DNA of 64,000 bases from an uncultured Actinomycetes bacterium (GTDB taxonomy: Bacteria; Actinomycetota; Acidimicrobiia; IMCC26256; DASPTH01): positions 675,568-739,567 of the forward strand of contig CAVRZT010000001.1 of NCBI GenBank assembly GCA_963725775.1. The letters are read 5' to 3'. The position numbers were made by a program, and so were the translations under genes. The stretch's first letter is position 1. Every line of letters begins with the position of its first letter. The notes under the pieces are model-generated. The model did not search any database, was not told the origin of the DNA, and saw nothing but the letters and a program-made list of their open reading frames with translations. Positions 4,828-52,652 of this stretch are shown one piece after another.

Positions 4828-6033
4828 ATGGCCCGTGACATCCCCCGGTTCATCAGCGTCGACGACCACGTGGTGGAGCCTCCCCACCTGTTCCAGAAGT
4901 GGTTGCCGAAGAAGTACGCCGACGATCCCCGCGCGCCTCACGTCGAGCGCCGGGGCATCGGCAAGATGGAGTACAAGGGCGGCACGACCTACGAGATCGA
5001 GTGGGACGACACGCAGCCCAAGTCCGACACGTGGTTCTACGAGGAGCTCGTGGCACCGCACAAGCGCCACGTCGCTTCGGTCGGGTTCCCGCGCGACGAG
5101 ATGACGTTGTCGCCGATCACCTACGACGAGATGCGCCCCGGGTGCTTCGACCCGAAGGCGCGACTCGAAGACATGGACCTCGACCACGTCGAGGCGTCGC
5201 TCTGCTTCCCGACCTTCCCGCGGTTCTGCGGCCAGACCTTCGCCGAGGCGAAGGACAAGGACCTCGCCTGGGCGTGCATGCGTGCGTACAACGACTGGAT
5301 GGTCGAGGAGTGGTGCGGCGATTCCGGCGGTCGGCTCATCCCGCTGTGCCTCGTCCCGCTGTGGGACGTCGAGCTCGCGGCCGCCGAGGTGCGGCACAAC
5401 GCGGCGCGTGGGGTGACCGCGGTCGCCTTCTCCGAGATCCCGGCGAAGCTCGGACTGCCCACATTGCACTCCGGCTACTGGGAGCCGTTCTTCCAGGCCT
5501 GCGCCGAGACCGAGACGCTCGTGTGCATGCACATCGGCTCGTCGTCGCAGATGCCGGCGACGTCACCTGACGCGCCGGCCGCGGTGCAGGCGACGCTGAG
5601 CTTCGGCAACGCGATGTCGTCGATGACCGACTACCTGTTCTCGGGTGTGCTCGTGCGCAACCCGCAGCTGCGACTGGCGTACAGCGAGGGCCAGATCGGG
5701 TGGATCCCCTACATCCTCGAGCGCGCCGATGACGTGTGGGTGGAGCACCGGGCGTGGGGTGGCGTGCAAGGCGTGATGACCGAGCCACCGTCGTACTACT
5801 ACCACCGGCAGGTCTTCGGTTGCTTCTTCCGCGATCGTCACGGCCTCGAGTCGCTGCACCGCATCGGCGTCGACAACGTGACCTTCGAGACCGACTACCC
5901 GCACACCGACTCGACGTGGCCGCACACGAAGAAGCTGTTCGAGGAGCAGGTAGCCGACCTCGACGACGAAACCGTCTACAAGCTCGCCCGGGGCAACGCC
6001 ATCCGCATGCTCCGGCTGCCGCTCGACCGCTGA
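4828..6033 (+). CDS. Amidohydrolase_2-type metal-dependent hydrolase (about 400 aa)
   Basis: ATG 4828 follows GGAGCGAGGAA. Motifs ISVDDHVVEPP, MHIGSSS, FETDYPHTDSTWPH. Clear paralog of 20073..21278. Confidence 0.85.
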   Translation: MARDIPRFISVDDHVVEPPHLFQKWLPKKYADDPRAPHVERRGIGKMEYKGGTTYEIEWDDTQPKSDTWFYEELVAPHKRHVASVGFPRDEMTLSPITYDEMRPGCFDPKARLEDMDLDHVEASLCFPTFPRFCGQTFAEAKDKDLAWACMRAYNDWMVEEWCGDSGGRLIPLCLVPLWDVELAAAEVRHNAARGVTAVAFSEIPAKLGLPTLHSGYWEPFFQACAETETLVCMHIGSSSQMPATSPDAPAAVQATLSFGNAMSSMTDYLFSGVLVRNPQLRLAYSEGQIGWIPYILERADDVWVEHRAWGGVQGVMTEPPSYYYHRQVFGCFFRDRHGLESLHRIGVDNVTFETDYPHTDSTWPHTKKLFEEQVADLDDETVYKLARGNAIRMLRLPLDR

Positions 6034-29882: not shown

Positions 29883-31105
29883 ATGGAAATCGGCGACTCC
29901 CCGGAAGAAGCGGCGTTCCGGGCCGAAGCCCGGAGCTGGCTCGAGCAGCACGCCACCCGGCTCGACGACGACGCCGCGTCACCCCAGGGGAGCTACGGCG
30001 CCGCGGGGCTCCAGGAGCACATGGACCAGTCGCGCGCGTGGCAGCGCACCCTCTACGACGAGGGCTGGGCCGGCATCACGCTGTCGAAGGACTACGGCGG
30101 GCGCGGCGGCACGGGCATGCAGCAGGCGATCTTCAACGAGGAGCAGGCGCAGTTCGACGTGTCGGTCGGCGCGTTCTCGGTCGCGGTGTCGATGGTGGTC
30201 CCGACGCTGATCGCGCACGGCACCGAACAGCAGAAGAAGGAGCACGTCGACGCCATCCTCCGGGGCGACGAGCTCTGGTGCCAGCTGTACAGCGAGCCTG
30301 GTGCCGGTTCCGATCTCGCGTCGCTCGGTACCGCGCGGGGTGCTCGACGGTGACGAGTACGTCGTCAACGGGCAGAAGGTGTGGAACAGCTTCGCCCAGT
30401 TCGCCGACTACGGCATCCTGCTCGCGCGTACGGATCCCGACGCGCCGAAGCACCGGGGGATCACCTACTTCATCGTCGACATGAAGACGCCCGGCATCGA
30501 CGTGCGCCCCCTCGTGCAGATCACCGGCGTGGCGCACTTCAACGAGGTGTTCCTCACCGACGTGCGCATCCCGGCCGAGAACGTGCTCGGCGATGTGAAC
30601 AACGGATGGGCGCGTCGCGCAGACCACGCTCGGCAACGAGCGCGCCATGATCGGCGGCGCGCAGGGTGGGCGCCAGGTGGCCGACATCATCGCCCTCGCC
30701 CGACGGATGGGCGTAAACGACGATCCGGTCGTCCGTCAGGAGCTCGCGCGGTTGGTGGTGCGCGCCGGGGTCATCCGGTACCTCGGTTTCCGGCTCCGCA
30801 CCGCGATGAGCAAAGGCCAGATGCCCGGGCCCGAGGCGTCGGTGCTCAAGCTCGCGTACTCGGAGCACCTCGCCGCGACCGGTGATCTCGTGCTGAGCCT
30901 CCTCGGACCCGAGGCCACGCTCTGGGGCGACGACGCACCCGACGACGCGCGCTGGCAGGATCAGTTCCTGAGCCAGTGGGCGAGTCGGATCGGTGGGGGG
31001 ACGGACCAGGTGCAGCGCAACGTGATCGGCGAACGGGCGCTCGGCCTGCCGCGTGACCCGTCGAGTGACAAGGACCTGCCGTGGCGCGAGCTGGTGAAGC
31101 CGTGA
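29883..31105 (+). pseudogene. Acyl-CoA dehydrogenase, two frameshifts
   Basis: Three consecutive ORFs (29883.., 30301.., 30647..) carry contiguous ACAD sequence. These are LWCQLYSEPGAGSDLASLGT / VLDGDEYVVNGQKVWNS..NNGW / ..ERAMIGGAQGG..GGTDQVQRNVIGERALGLP. The switches are at G-run 30337-30340 and near 30612. Confidence 0.75.
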
Positions 31106-31893
31106 GGACCGTCGCGATCACCGGTTCCGGGTCGGGCATGGGTGCCGCGTTGGCGGCGCGGCTCGAGGCCGGAGGCGACCGCGTCATCGGCATCGACGTG
31201 AAGCACGCCGAGGTCGAGGCCGACCTCGGCACCGCCGACGGTCGCGCCGAGGCGATCGCGCGGGTCGGTGAGCTCTCGGGCGGCACGCTCGACGGTCTGG
31301 TGACGCTCGCGGGCCTCGCGGGCCTGCCCGAACGCCCGGCGTCGTTGCTGATCTCGGTCAACTACTTCGGCACCGTCGAGCTGCTGGCGGGCCTGCGGCC
31401 CCTCCTCGCCCGCGGCGCGAATCCGGCGGCGGTGGCGATCAGCTCGAACTCGACCACCTGTCAGCCCGGGCTCGACGAGGCGCTCATTGCCAGCTGCCTG
31501 GAGGGCGACGAAGCCGCGACGCGCGCCCTGGCCGGTGAGGGCGAGTCGCTCAGCACGTATCCCGTCACCAAGACCGCGCTGTCCTGGTGGGTGCGGCGCC
31601 ACGCGCCGACGGCCGACTGGGCGGGGGCGGGGATCACTCTCAACGCGGTCGCGCCGGGCGCGATCCAGACGCCGCTGCTCCAGGAAGGGCTCGACCACCC
31701 CACGGTCGGTCCGATGATCGAAGCGTTCAAGTCGCCGCTCGGTCGCAACGGCCGCCCCGAGGAGATCGCCGCGCTCATCGCGTACCTCCTCGGGCCTGAC
31801 GCCCGGTTCTTCTGCGGGTCGGTGCTGTTCTGCGACGGTGGGATGGACGCGCAGTTCCGCAGTGACGACTGGCCCAAACCCTGGAGGCCCTGA
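31102..31893 (+). CDS. Short-chain dehydrogenase/reductase
   Basis: GTG 31102 overlaps the ACAD stop (GTGA). ITGSGSGMGAA Rossmann motif and YPVTK active-site pattern. Confidence 0.8.
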   Translation: MRTVAITGSGSGMGAALAARLEAGGDRVIGIDVKHAEVEADLGTADGRAEAIARVGELSGGTLDGLVTLAGLAGLPERPASLLISVNYFGTVELLAGLRPLLARGANPAAVAISSNSTTCQPGLDEALIASCLEGDEAATRALAGEGESLSTYPVTKTALSWWVRRHAPTADWAGAGITLNAVAPGAIQTPLLQEGLDHPTVGPMIEAFKSPLGRNGRPEEIAALIAYLLGPDARFFCGSVLFCDGGMDAQFRSDDWPKPWRP

Positions 31894-32336
31894 TGGACAC
31901 CCTCGAAGAGCTCGGCGCGATCGAGCAGATCAAGAAGCTGAAGGGGCGGTACTTCCGCTGCATGGACACCAAGGACTGGGACGGCTTCCAAGCGGTGTTC
32001 GCGCCCGACGCGACGATGGACACGACGCAGGAAGCGCCGAACATCGACGTCGTGCACGGTGATGCGAACATCCGCCAGTTCGTCGAGGGGTCGGTCGGTC
32101 CGGTCGTCACCGTGCACCACGGGCACATGCCCGAGATCGAGATCACGTCGCCGACGACCGCGCGCGGCGTGTGGGCGATGCAGGACTTCCTGCAGATGCC
32201 CGAGGGCTCGCCGCTCGGGATGAAGAGCATGACCGGCTACGGCCACTACACCGAGACCTACGAGCTCGTCGACGGTCAATGGCTGATCAAGACGCTCGTG
32301 CTCACCCGCCTGCGGCGCGACGTCGAGATGGCGTGA
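31893..32336 (+). CDS. NTF2/SnoaL-like protein (BaiE-type dehydratase-like fold)
   Basis: 147 aa. IEQIKKLKGRYFRCMDTKDWDGF is typical of the SnoaL_4 group. The start overlaps the SDR stop (TGATG). Confidence 0.75.
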   Translation: MDTLEELGAIEQIKKLKGRYFRCMDTKDWDGFQAVFAPDATMDTTQEAPNIDVVHGDANIRQFVEGSVGPVVTVHHGHMPEIEITSPTTARGVWAMQDFLQMPEGSPLGMKSMTGYGHYTETYELVDGQWLIKTLVLTRLRRDVEMA

Positions 32337-32515
32337 GCGTGAGCGAGCCGGGTATCCCGGTGAGTAGCGAACGCCCAAGAGTGATGGCGTGAGCGTGAGC
32401 GAGCCGGGTATCCCGGTGAGTAGCGAACGCCCAAGAGTGATGGCGTGAGCGTGAGCGAGCCGGGTATCCCGGTGAGTAGCGAACGCCCAAGAGTGATGGC
32501 GTGAGCGTGAGCGAG
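32328..32515 (+). repeat. Perfect 56-bp tandem repeat, 3 full copies + 20-bp partial copy
   Basis: The unit is ATGGCGTGAGCGTGAGCGAGCCGGGTATCCCGGTGAGTAGCGAACGCCCAAGAGTG. Copies at 32328-32383, 32384-32439 and 32440-32495 are 100% identical. A partial copy lies at 32496-32515. Confidence 0.97.
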
Positions 32516-33480
32516 TGACGTACGACCCGAGGTTCCGCCCGCCGCAACCGCCGACGCCGGCACCCGGCGAGCTCACGATCGAGCGCTCGGTGGTGCGCGA
32601 CGACCTCGCCCTCGCGTACGTGCGTGAAGGTGTCGGTGGGTACCCGTTGCTCCTGCTACACGGGTACCCGGAGACCAAGCGCATCTGGTGGCGCAACATC
32701 GCGCCGCTCGCAGCCGCGGGCTTCGAGGTCATCGTCCCTGATCTCCGCGGCTACGGCGACAGCGATCTCTCGCCCGACGACGTCTACGACCTCGCGGTGT
32801 ACTCGCGCGACGTCCACGCGCTCGTGCACGACGTGCTGGGCCACACGCGGTGCGCCGTCGCCGGCGGCGACATCGGCGGTGTCGTCGGCGTCGACCTCGT
32901 GCACCGCTTCGACGGCTTCGTCGAGAAGTTCTGCTTCTTCAACACCGTGCCCCCCGCCGCGATCGAGCAGTACGCGGCCGCGGGGATGGACTACGGCTCC
33001 TTGAGCGCGCTCAGCGACGGCCCGACCGGCGACTACCGCGAGCTCCAGGGCGCGCGGCCCGACGACCTGGCGGCGATGCTGGCCACCGACGCGGCGCGCC
33101 GGCAGTGGATCGCGGGCATGTACCAGAGCCGGCTGTGGGCCTCGCCCGGCACGTTCGGTCGGGCCGACGTCGACTTCATGACGGAGCCGTTCGCCGACGA
33201 AACGAGGTTGCGCGCCGGGTGGTCGGCGTACCAGCTCGGGCACGGTCGTCCGATGACCGAACCGCCCTTGCTCGGCGGAACGGTCGACGTGCCCACGCTC
33301 CTGCTCTACGGCACCGACGACCACGTGGTCGGCGAGGACTTCGTGTGGTTCTGCGAGCGGGCCTTCACCGATCGCATCGGACCGCTCCTGATCCCGGGCG
33401 CCGGCCACTTCCTGCAGTGGGAGCGCGCCGACATCTTCAACCCACTGCTCACCAGCGTCTTCGGCGACCTCGTCCGCTGA
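32515..33480 (+). CDS. Alpha/beta hydrolase (epoxide-hydrolase / haloacetate-dehalogenase-like)
   Basis: GTG start. LLLLHGYPE, VPDLRGYGDS and the Asp-nucleophile elbow GGDIGG. 321 aa. Confidence 0.8.
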   Translation: MTYDPRFRPPQPPTPAPGELTIERSVVRDDLALAYVREGVGGYPLLLLHGYPETKRIWWRNIAPLAAAGFEVIVPDLRGYGDSDLSPDDVYDLAVYSRDVHALVHDVLGHTRCAVAGGDIGGVVGVDLVHRFDGFVEKFCFFNTVPPAAIEQYAAAGMDYGSLSALSDGPTGDYRELQGARPDDLAAMLATDAARRQWIAGMYQSRLWASPGTFGRADVDFMTEPFADETRLRAGWSAYQLGHGRPMTEPPLLGGTVDVPTLLLYGTDDHVVGEDFVWFCERAFTDRIGPLLIPGAGHFLQWERADIFNPLLTSVFGDLVR

Positions 33481-33528
33481 GCCGAGCGTCGAGGTGAAGG
33501 TCTGGCGCGTACGTCGTAACGTCGGGGC

Positions 33529-34521
33529 ATGACCGACACGAACCAGGAGTCCGCGCTCGAGCTGACGCGGACGATTCGTACCCCGAGCTCGGTGAGCCCG
33601 GAGGCCCAGGCTGCGATCGCGGCGGGCAGCGCGATGGTGCCCGGCCGGCTGGCGGAACCCGCGTCGTTCCCGTCGCTCGACGACGCCGCGGGGTGGAAGG
33701 AGCATGTCGCGGTGACCGACCTGTTCATCGCCACGAGCTTCGAGAGCCAGCCGGGGCTGCAGGACACGCCGACCGAGACGGTCCAGGTCGATGGCATCGA
33801 CGTGTTCGTGATCACCCCCGAGGGCGCCGACACCGGCGACGACGCCCTGATGCTCTACGACATCCACGGCGGCGCGCTGATCGCCGGCGGGGGTGACGTG
33901 TGCCGCCTCATGGGAATCATGGCGGCGCGGCGGGCCGGTCTGCACACGTGGGCCGTCGACTACCGCATGCCGCCCGACCATCCGTATCCGACGCCGCTCG
34001 ACGATTGCGTGGCCGTCTACCGCGCGCTGCTCGAGATCAAGCCCGCGGAGAAGATCGTCGTCGCCGGCGGGTCCGCCGGTGGCAACCTCGCCGCGGCGTT
34101 GATGCTCCGCGCGCGCGCCGAGGGTCTCCCGATGCCGAAGGCCCTGATGCTCTTCACCCCCGAGGTGGACCTCACCGAGTCGGGCGACACCTTCGACACC
34201 AACGAGGGCGTCGACTACGTGCTGCTCAAGCGCCTGACCGAGTCGATCGCGCTGTACGCGAACGGCCACGACCTCACCGACCCGTTCCTGTCGCCCGTGT
34301 TCGGTGACGTGAGCGGCTTCCCGCCCACGTTCCTCCAAGCCGGCACGCGCGACCTGTTCCTCTCCAACACCGTCCGCATGCACCGGGCGCTGCGGAAGGC
34401 AGGGGTCGAGGCCGAGCTCCACGTCTGGGAGGCGATGCCGCACGGAGGCTTCTTCGGCGTCGCGCCCGAGGACGCCGAGGTGGGCGTCGAGGCGCGGGCG
34501 TTCATCGCCAAGCACCTCTGA
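33529..34521 (+). CDS. Alpha/beta hydrolase fold-3 esterase/lipase (HSL-like)
   Basis: 330 aa. IHGGALIAGGG oxyanion motif and nucleophile elbow GGSAGGNLAAA. Confidence 0.8.
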   Translation: MTDTNQESALELTRTIRTPSSVSPEAQAAIAAGSAMVPGRLAEPASFPSLDDAAGWKEHVAVTDLFIATSFESQPGLQDTPTETVQVDGIDVFVITPEGADTGDDALMLYDIHGGALIAGGGDVCRLMGIMAARRAGLHTWAVDYRMPPDHPYPTPLDDCVAVYRALLEIKPAEKIVVAGGSAGGNLAAALMLRARAEGLPMPKALMLFTPEVDLTESGDTFDTNEGVDYVLLKRLTESIALYANGHDLTDPFLSPVFGDVSGFPPTFLQAGTRDLFLSNTVRMHRALRKAGVEAELHVWEAMPHGGFFGVAPEDAEVGVEARAFIAKHL

Positions 34522-51563: not shown

Positions 51564-52376
51564 CTACCAGAGCTCGTCGGTGTACTTGTCGGTGCCGAAC
51601 TCGGTCTGGATGAACGGGCCGGTCCAGACGTGGGTGGCGAGACCGCTGTCGTTGATCGCCTGGCCGATCTTGGCGTAGCCGTCGGCCCAGCCCTCCTCGG
51701 GGTCGTGATCGAGGAAGTGCAGCTGGAGGAACCGGTTCGGTCCGGCCGCCGGGGGCGGCACGTCGGCGGGACGGTCGTCGAGGAGGGGCAGCGTCGTCGC
51801 GTCGAGCACGACGTCGGGACCCCACGGCTCGCCGAACGTGCCCGGGAGGTATGTGTCGCGGAACCAGGCGTCGACCTCGTCGTGCGTGTGACCCTCCTTC
51901 ACGTCACCCGCGACCACGACGAGGCCCGGGTAGTTGTGGTCGAGCGCGAGCTCGATGGTGCACGTGTCGTCGGCCTTGCGCTCGGCCCACCGCTTCTCGT
52001 AGAGCAGCGTGTGGACGTGGGTGCGCTGCTCGAACATGCGCCCGTTCTGGTGCAACCAGGTCACCTGCTCGACCGCCCACCGGTTCCACTCGTCGTGCTT
52101 GCCTTCGAGCACCCAGTAGATCGCGAGGTACGAGCCGACCTGGTTGTCGGCGGTCATGTCGCTGCCCGCGGGGTAGCGCAACGCCTTCATCCGCCGGGTC
52201 GCGACGAACCGGTCTCCCGCGAACTGCCATTCGCCGACCATGCAGCCTGAATAGAAGTGATCGTGCTCGTACCAGCGGTTGTACTCGACCTCCCGGCCCT
52301 TCTCGGGCTCGACCATCGTGAAGAGCAGGGTCCCGAGCTTGATCGGGTAGTCCTCCATGCCGGGAATCGCTTCCAT
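51564..52376 (-). CDS. Hypothetical protein, NRWY-x-x-(D/E)H family (member B)
   Basis: 270 aa. LLFTMVEPEKGREVEYNRWYEHDHFY, with a second EWNRW further in. RBS GAGGGAG. Confidence 0.7.
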   Translation of the reverse strand: MEAIPGMEDYPIKLGTLLFTMVEPEKGREVEYNRWYEHDHFYSGCMVGEWQFAGDRFVATRRMKALRYPAGSDMTADNQVGSYLAIYWVLEGKHDEWNRWAVEQVTWLHQNGRMFEQRTHVHTLLYEKRWAERKADDTCTIELALDHNYPGLVVVAGDVKEGHTHDEVDAWFRDTYLPGTFGEPWGPDVVLDATTLPLLDDRPADVPPPAAGPNRFLQLHFLDHDPEEGWADGYAKIGQAINDSGLATHVWTGPFIQTEFGTDKYTDELW

Positions 52377-52393
52377 GTTCTGCTCCCTCGCTG

Positions 52394-52440
52394 CGACCCG
52401 GGATACCCGGCTCGCGGCCGCTCGCTCGCGGTCCGGCGGG
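52394..52440 (-). repeat. Solitary diverged copy of the 56-bp repeat core
   Basis: The minus strand reads GCGAGCGAGCGGCCGCGAGCCGGGTATCCCGGGTCGCAGCGAGGGAG. An 18-nt exact match (GCGAGCCGGGTATCCCGG) to the 32.3-kb unit has about half of the next 21 nt matching. Here the palindrome extends to GCGAGCCGGG-TAT-CCCGGGTCGC. Confidence 0.35.
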
Positions 52441-52455
52441 CGACGCTAGCTTGTT

Positions 52456-52472
52456 TCTGACGGACCGTCAGG
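52456..52472. promoter_or_regulatory. Operator-like palindrome copy 5 (TCTGACGGACCGTCAGG)
   Basis: Matches 16 of 17 positions of the perfect copy at 14424. About 80 nt upstream of the start at 52376 (-). Confidence 0.55.
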
Positions 52473-52652
52473 TCCGGCGGAGGACGCCAACGCTATCTGT
52501 GAGTACCGCTACCTGCTGGGCAGCCCTGACGTACGCCAGGCACTCTTGCTAGCTACTCTCCGTGAGCAGGGCGGGATACTCACCAGAGGGCGGGGAGTTC
52601 AAGGGCGTCTCTCTGGCCGTCTTCATCAATCGACGTGCCAGAGGGGCAGGAC

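Follow-up and report, generated by a model that had tools for sequence, protein, structure and literature searches.

The stretch of DNA analysed here, referred to as the window, comprises 64,000 nt of contig CAVRZT010000001.1 from an uncultured bacterium of the class Acidimicrobiia, and the element of interest is a perfect tandem repeat that separates two of its plus-strand genes. Upstream lies a gene for a SnoaL_4/NTF2-like protein of 147 aa (31893–32336, stop codon TGA at 32334–32336) and downstream a gene for an alpha/beta hydrolase of 321 aa (Abhydrolase_1; 32515–33480, GTG start codon at 32515–32517). Tandem Repeats Finder (TRF) reports a single array at 32327–32515 with a period of 56, 3.4 copies, 100% matches, 0 indels and a score of 378. 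The 56-mer itself is found three times with 0 mismatches in the window and has 0 occurrences in 100 shuffles, and the two counts agree on the perfect 56 bp x 3.4 array described in an initial annotation of this DNA. All units are on the plus strand: unit 1 (32327–32382, 56 bp, GATGGCGTGAGCGTGAGCGAGCCGGGTATCCCGGTGAGTAGCGAACGCCCAAGAGT) and the identical units 2 (32383–32438) and 3 (32439–32494) are followed by a partial unit (32495–32515, 21 nt by TRF), the last base of which is the first base of the hydrolase GTG. Units 1, 2 and 3 each carry the hairpin G-CCGGG-TAT-CCCGG-T (32347–32361, 32403–32417 and 32459–32473, with the CCGGG-TAT-CCCGG core at 32348–32360, 32404–32416 and 32460–32472), with tandem G.A mismatches and another two G-C pairs at its borders.

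The array is at the same time a chain of small open reading frames (ORFs) that connects the two genes. Mini-ORF 1 (32333–32392, plus strand) runs from GTG to TGA over 19 codons, encodes VSVSEPGIPVSSERPRVMA, and overlaps the stop codon of the SnoaL-like gene with its GTG (GTGA). Mini-ORFs 2 (32389–32448) and 3 (32445–32504) encode the same peptide, VSVSEPGIPVSSERPRVMA, each at a spacing of -4 to the preceding one, and mini-ORF 4 (32501–32518; VSVSE) ends in a TGA at 32516–32518 that overlaps the hydrolase GTG. All spacings in the chain, including that to the hydrolase GTG, are thus -4. A walk along the ORFs and the hairpin coordinates agree with the initial annotation, which had placed such a chain and a hairpin in every unit, and the GTGA stop/start overlaps were confirmed at 32333, 32389, 32445, 32501 and 32515.

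The origin of the spacer becomes apparent from its absence in relatives. Hydrolase homologues 92% and 91% identical to that of the window led to contigs L009 and L010, in which the two genes overlap as ...GAGATGTGACG / ...GAGATGTGACGTACGA (GTGA), i.e. ...GAC GTC GAG ATG TGA CG..., such that the SnoaL-like protein ends in VEM and the hydrolase GTG lies inside ATGTGA. In four further relatives (L013–L016) the same junction is a 4-nt overlap or a 1-nt gap, and the spacer is absent in 6/6 relatives examined versus 3.4 copies in the window. Compared with the empty site, the inserted DNA amounts to 185 nt (32331–32515, plus strand; 3x56 + 17) between GAGATG and (G)TGACGTACGA, with a boundary that is ambiguous by 1 nt due to a shared G. 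Where the array meets unique sequence, both junctions are clean and keep the register of the empty site. Because the relatives show the same flanks without the spacer, the window spacer is judged to be derived and placed on a formerly translationally coupled junction. The last codon of the SnoaL-like gene (Ala) and its stop codon TGA come from the inserted repeat, and the protein ends in VEMA in the window versus VEM in the relatives. The hydrolase N-terminus (VTYD/E.RFRPPQP) is kept from the GTG at 32515 in the relatives, with DNA differences that are mostly synonymous, and this GTG is therefore the true hydrolase start. In its ancestral context, the GTG has near-absent Shine-Dalgarno (SD) pairing (-3.5 kcal/mol vs a median of -9.0 for real genes), and expression of the hydrolase would therefore depend on coupling. 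No promoter-like or terminator-like site was found in 31800–33000, and the hairpin is ruled out as an intrinsic terminator by the criterion of a U tract, since GAGTAGCG comes next.

The unit belongs to a dispersed family. An exact scan for a 22-mer core, GCGAGCCGGGTATCCCGGTGAG, over 185,579 species genomes found 8 loci in 5 metagenome-assembled genomes (MAGs), all labelled Acidimicrobiia, Actinomycetota or (uncultured) Actinomycetes. In total, the family counts about 12 non-homologous sites (five MAGs and one metagenome contig) in addition to a second copy in the window, and the host genomes of these loci were read as pieces of 8–20 kb. The copies lie in unrelated contexts: at the junction of two acyl-CoA dehydrogenase-like genes (L001), on the upstream side of a nitronate-monooxygenase-like gene (L002), behind groEL and once more ahead of the following gene (L003), between a further pair of genes (L004), in the ssb-rpsR gap (L005, L007), upstream of a USP-like gene (L006) and within the C-terminal tail of a RarA-like gene (L008). 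A single genome may hold several: MAG JBKPCV01 has four loci (L001, two in L002, and L008), and the 64-kb window has two. The search for further copies that had been proposed in the initial annotation thus found them beyond the array, and the objection that the unit has no other copies falls. A scan of metagenomes with the window-specific tail yielded L011, which shares the exact left end and right tail of the window array at a different gene. Here, a gene for a LivF-type ABC ATPase ends in ...ATGGCGTGA, the same as the SnoaL-like gene of the window, and is followed by three units with the same flanks and different hairpins; the next gene starts 315 nt beyond the array.

The sequence had not been recognised as any described repeat at the outset, and further searches leave it so. 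Rfam gave no match on the array at E <= 10 and no gathering-score match anywhere in the window, a search of plasmid records gave no match to the family unit, and targeted literature searches ('MIRU-like' elements; Acidimicrobiia intergenic repeats) found no description of the family. Some weaker candidates were set aside: the sole viral-contig match to a 20-mer core (L012) is a chance match in coding sequence from which the conserved flanks are absent, and weak covariance-model matches in L014/L015 (a native ribosome-binding site (RBS), GGGAGGGAGCGAGCGATG) and L017 were not accepted as copies.

The family unit consists of purine-rich flanks, GAGCGAGCG and GAGCAGCGAGCG, around a GC hairpin. The left flank is (R)TGAGCGAGCG or GGAGCGAGCGG, the hairpin is usually GCCGGG-TAT-CCCGGT, and the right flank GAGCAGCGAGCG is followed by a variable tail, often with a start codon; the aligned consensus is GAGCGAGCGG-NN-GCGAG-[CCGGG TAT CCCGG]-TGAGCAGCGAGCG. 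Pairing in the hairpin is maintained, with 99% of cells paired vs 31–67% in slid controls, double-sided compensatory changes at two pairs (CCCGG/CCGGG in L006a and GGCGGG/CCCGCC in L011a), and a change from G.U to G-C in four hairpin copies. The RNA of the unit has a predicted fold of -23.6 kcal/mol (z = -3.7 vs shuffles). In L011 (8060–8265), neighbouring units with identical flanks carry either a 6-bp hairpin, GGCGGG-TAC-CCCGCC, or a stem of about 12 bp (71-nt units), from which the hairpin is judged to behave as an exchangeable module. A variant in L002 (1034–1094), detected by a covariance model, has a perfect 12-bp hairpin, CCGCGGCGCAGG-TAA-CCTGCGCCGCGG, and begins at the stop codon (GAGTGAGCG) of a gene; it lies in a convergent gap and therefore serves no downstream start. 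The native RBS of an Abhydrolase_3 gene in L014 (11062–11079; also L015, 1811–1828) is GGGAGGGAGCGAGCGATG, close to the flank GGAGCGAGCG, which suggests that the flanks of the element mimic, or derive from, ordinary RBS sequence of these genomes.

Length, orientation and copy number follow a consistent pattern. Units of 56, 58, 59 and 71 nt were found, none of which is divisible by 3, and tandem units elsewhere in the family reach about 76–89 nt. Because unit length is not a multiple of 3 and each unit has one stop codon, all sense frames are closed across the array. For every unit length but 71 nt, all three antisense frames are open. The element is in sense orientation at 7/7 independent co-directional junctions (one-sided binomial p ~0.008), and copies in divergent or convergent gaps (locus B of the window, described below, and L002) abut a gene of their own orientation. 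The two window copies, A (plus strand) and B (minus strand), likewise each follow their own gene and not one DNA strand. Copy number varies at the ssb-rpsR gap, with 3 units in L005 vs 1 in L007, and tandem arrays of 2–3 units, some with mismatches, are present in the independent assemblies L002, L003, L005 and L011. The two-unit array of L003 is bracketed by a 17-nt direct repeat (CATGGACTTTTAAGTCC / CATGGACTTCTAAGTCC, at 5058–5074 and 5192–5208) that copies the final groEL codons and the stop codon, and only this array of the family makes a convincing case for a target-site duplication. Such a duplication was accordingly rejected as a general signature, L003a being the only convincing case beyond the partial unit that is inherent to arrays.

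The relay geometry, in which stop codons meet the next start codon along the element, is present and recurrent across the family. A strict path (spacing -4 or -1) is found in the window array, L001 (one 62-codon ORF, spacings -4 and -1), L004 (one 29-codon ORF with an ATGA overlap at either end) and L008, where the frame of the upstream gene continues across the element and its stop forms an ATGA with the next gene. At L005 and L007, the relay chains have spacings of -1 and +2. Altogether, there is a relay path at 5/6 co-directional family junctions vs 1/15 element-free spacers (Fisher p ~0.002, an estimate), the controls being ordinary co-directional spacers of 20–330 nt from the same sequences, scored with generous start choices. 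In the window, a -4 or -1 overlap is possible in only 4/47 of the co-directional gene pairs called. The mini-ORF frame through the core varies, however, and reads EPGIPVSSER at some loci vs RAGYPGEQRA at others (L001, L004, L005, L007). Because of this difference in reading frame, the conserved entity is taken to be the DNA or RNA and not the peptide. Parts of the start codons of the array are predicted to be paired in the RNA, in structure that would be opened by a ribosome terminating there, and ribosomes could in principle reinitiate along the chain, with a possible effect on expression.

The second copy in the window, locus B, is a diverged single copy on the minus strand (52373–52433; found with a hidden Markov model and a covariance model, 63 bits) in the orientation of its downstream gene. 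Its hairpin stops 17 nt short of the ATG at 52376 that opens a gene for a conserved protein of 270 aa (51564–52376, minus strand), whose native RBS region, GCAGCGAGGGAGCA, resembles the right flank of the element. This locus also has counterparts in relatives. L017 is empty (GTCGCCCGCC|GCAGCGACC), with about 40 nt (52434–52395) missing there, and L018 retains the right hairpin arm only, while the window has the left flank and the full hairpin. L018 and L009, the latter empty at locus A, are from one sample.

We consider it probable that a member of a dispersed family of small repeats in Acidimicrobiia gave rise to the array by an insertion that was recent and lineage-specific and by later amplification in tandem. 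The element would have landed exactly in the GTGA stop/start overlap of the coupled SnoaL-like and alpha/beta hydrolase genes. Direct repeats of 17–21 nt at the ends of a single unit would then have allowed amplification to 3.4 identical copies by strand slippage or unequal exchange, and it is because the unit is bounded by such slippage-ready repeats that the perfect three-copy array is read as a recent expansion. With a length of 56 nt (3n+2) and GTGA at the boundary, each stop would overlap the GTG that opens the next 19-codon frame, and a ribosome leaving the SnoaL-like gene could, in principle, proceed by stepwise reinitiation through the four mini-ORFs up to the hydrolase GTG. Should each reinitiation fall short of full efficiency, hydrolase output would be lower with more copies. 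The element itself is best thought of as a mobile repeat, either selfish or neutral, of the MIRU (mycobacterial interspersed repetitive unit) type, in which case the copies surviving in operons would be those that spare coupling. It may be tolerated for two reasons, namely that every frame is stopped, and an overlapping restart provided, when it lies in sense orientation, and that its flanks resemble native RBSs. The relay would accordingly be a tolerated feature rather than a dedicated regulator.

Several observations weigh against this interpretation or limit it. The relay geometry of the window is not strongly non-random: with the boundary motifs kept, a path is present in 39/500 dinucleotide shuffles (8%) and in 208/500 random-composition spacers (42%), although this control is lenient in that the boundary RTGA is kept and a single open frame counts as a relay, and the comparison relied upon is that with the natural element-free spacers. 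The mini-ORF GTGs have weak SD pairing (-6.2 kcal/mol, compared with -5.0 for random 20-mers and -9.0 for real genes), and L003 and L011 are without a relay path, from which it follows that the relay is not obligatory in the family. The compensatory changes in the hairpin could be due to template switching at DNA quasi-palindromes instead of selection on RNA. A target-site duplication is not general across the family loci, and no transposase or other mobilising function was seen, which in the ~200 kb of sequence at hand is a weak test. The family sample of about 13 loci was seeded by the exact 22-mer, by which the apparent conservation of the core is inflated. Finally, the copy number of the perfect 189-bp repeat is that of the assembly, which may be wrong at this point.

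The last concern amounts to an explanation of its own, that the element is real and its three perfect copies are an assembly artefact, with a different true count. At 100% identity, 189 bp exceeds common short reads and assembly k-mers, and the searched collections contain no independent assembly of the locus; exact look-ups of the flanking proteins of the window genome were also without match there. On the other hand, independent assemblies hold family arrays of 2–3 units with occasional mismatches, and the junctions with unique sequence are clean and in the register of the empty site, such that we regard an artefact as improbable. A functional micropeptide (VSVSEPGIPVSSERPRVMA) encoded by the mini-ORFs is more improbable by far. 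The frame is open and repeated, and in L008 the upstream gene runs on across the element in that frame (EPGIPVSSER), but at four other loci the core is read in a different frame, conservation tracks nucleotides and base pairing rather than codons, and a search with the peptide gave only an antisense artefact.

A host-encoded, cis-acting RNA element, formed by the hairpin and its purine flanks and involved, for example, in mRNA stabilisation, RNase processing or protein binding, would have spread by recruitment to many transcripts and would make the mini-ORFs incidental. It would account for the strict sense orientation, the compensatory changes that maintain the hairpin, the better folding of the unit RNA than of its shuffles, the presence of copies in 3´ untranslated regions (UTRs; L003 after groEL and L002 1034–1094) as well as in 5´ leaders (window B and L002a), and a core that is almost the same in different MAGs. 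It is nevertheless unlikely, considering that even the permissive Rfam search gave no match, that the functions of the neighbouring genes are unrelated (ssb/rpsR, groEL, acyl-CoA dehydrogenases, ABC ATPase, hydrolase), that hairpin modules are swapped between identical flanks in L011, and that presence or absence between close relatives better suits a mobile or neutral element. The two ideas are compatible, as a mobile element can act on RNA too. Covariation in the hairpin fits a DNA hairpin equally well, and short GC hairpins with conserved flanks in dispersed, clustered copies have the look of repetitive extragenic palindromic (REP) sequences and bacterial interspersed mosaic elements (BIMEs) or of elements derived from IS200/IS605. 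The unit could thus be a hairpin repeat of the REP or palindrome-associated transposable element (PATE) type that a tyrosine HUH transposase (REP-associated tyrosine transposase (RAYT) or IS200/IS605 TnpA) mobilises in the form of single-stranded DNA, with its orientation reflecting the replication strand rather than translation. Yet the two window copies, 20 kb apart, are on opposite strands according to the gene that each follows, the arrays are direct tandems and not the inverted pairs typical of BIMEs, and GTAG occurs in some copies only and 3´ of the hairpin. Together with the lack of a transposase gene, for what that test is worth, this speaks for a low probability.

Within the preferred interpretation of a mobile repeat that inserted and was amplified, a more specific version is possible, if doubtful: that the element targets coupling junctions and start codons, and that its ends, with RTGA/ATG and an SD-like purine tract, rebuild coupling upon insertion. 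Movement would then perhaps be guided by microhomology of the GAGCGAGCG/GCAGCGAG flanks with RBS-like sequence, as at locus B and in the ssb-rpsR gap. If so, pairs of empty and filled sites would give direct access to how MIRU-type repeats move, and copy number would be a stepwise dial on the output of the downstream gene.

To our knowledge, MIRU-type repeats are known essentially from mycobacteria, and their mechanism of movement, a question since 1997, and their role are unsettled. MIRUs are used worldwide for strain typing of mycobacteria, and the MIRU unit described by Supply in 1997 reportedly contains a dyad symmetry. The likeness of the present family to MIRUs is extensive. The unit of the window array (56 bp x 3.4) is within the size range of such tandem units (~40–100 bp), copies lie between co-directional operon genes in the same orientation (window A; all seven junctions above), there are several dispersed loci per genome (two in the 64-kb window, four in JBKPCV01), and copy number varies (0 vs 3.4; 3 vs 1) in comparisons made between relatives rather than same-species alleles. 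In the window, the small ORFs overlap, at -4, the stop and start codons on either side, which is not so at L003 and L011. A 2025 review describes MIRUs as apparently mobile elements that insert at start codons, with a coupling of -4 nt between the MIRU ORF and the gene (PMC12548453, citing Supply 1997), and MIRU/variable number tandem repeat (VNTR) copy number is reported to alter expression of the downstream gene (PMC4338821). There are also differences. The present host is of the class Acidimicrobiia and not Mycobacterium, and the exact 22-mer core is without match in any other lineage, mycobacteria included, among the 185,579 species genomes, a separation made without alignment to the MIRU consensus. 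The unit is modular, with conserved flanks and interchangeable hairpins (L011, L002b), and some copies, found in 5´ leaders and 3´ UTRs, have no relay. Judged from sequence, the family is MIRU-like by architecture and a separate sequence family, not MIRU sensu stricto. The original proposal of a MIRU-like VNTR, its ORFs overlapping the stop and start codons on both sides, is supported. Dispersed copies, empty sites, copy-number variation and the recurrence of the relay geometry extend it.

The present family resembles the REP and BIME of proteobacteria in that both are short, extragenic hairpin repeats that are dispersed and sometimes clustered. REP and BIME occur in both orientations and frequently as inverted pairs, have a conserved 5´ GTAG and associated RAYT genes, and mRNA stabilisation is among their proposed roles. 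The present arrays differ in being direct tandems in sense orientation, no RAYT gene was seen in the ~200 kb of sequence, and GTAG is not conserved and is 3´ of the hairpin where found. Other small intergenic repeat families are BRE of Bordetella, ERIC, NEMIS/Correia, BOX and RUP, and BRE is present in 2, 3 or 4 copies at the lexA locus between species (PMC3110155). As described there, these are likewise small, non-coding and dispersed repeats, some in tandem and with variable copy number, of unclear function and mobility; chains of ORFs that overlap stop and start codons and junction-precise insertion are not attributed to them in that summary (PMC3110155). The classic -4 overlap of termination-reinitiation coupling (ATGA/GTGA/TGATG) is found at the ancestral junction as well as at each unit boundary, the difference being that five successive reinitiations through non-functional mini-ORFs supplied by the repeat would be needed here.

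The occurrence of a MIRU architecture built from unrelated sequence in Acidimicrobiia, a distant class that is largely uncultured, suggests a recurrent solution. Tightly packed operons are apparently open to a small repeat that closes every frame and supplies overlapping restart codons. The window is a clean case in this respect, with an empty site known from relatives and a filled site defined to the base, and it provides material for studying the mechanism of insertion. The arrays are likely to be length-variable markers for populations of Acidimicrobiia. They also generate spurious antisense ORFs that are able to enter protein databases. In the window, all three antisense frames of the array are open, which contributes to a spurious 423-aa ORF on the minus strand (31461–32732). 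A search with the antisense peptide matched one protein only, P0121, which has no DNA on record; P0121 is an artefact that records another array with a period of 56 nt, an antisense array ORF having been deposited as a protein in public collections.

Some further features of the window touch on the two loci. The operon at 31081–34521 is tightly packed: the SDR and SnoaL-like genes share TGATG (1-nt overlap at 31893), and the ORF for the C-terminal part of an acyl-CoA dehydrogenase runs over the SDR start. TRF also gives a row with a period of 112 (32341–32572, 78% matches) that extends 57 nt past the start of the hydrolase gene. The weak similarity of the first hydrolase codons to the unit may be compositional, or it may have been left behind by the insertion process. 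At locus B, the 270-aa protein is widespread and conserved with no function assigned, having >1,000 homologues at E <= 1e-40, mostly metagenomic, with a precomputed Pfam domain in none of those listed. Upstream of its gene (51564–52376), on the minus strand, a palindrome, GGACCTGACGGTCCGTCAG within GGACCTGACGGTCCGTCAGAAACAAGCTAGCGTCGCC, is found at 52457–52475. It is base-for-base identical in L017 and L018 amid diverging surroundings and looks like a candidate operator for a dimeric regulator.

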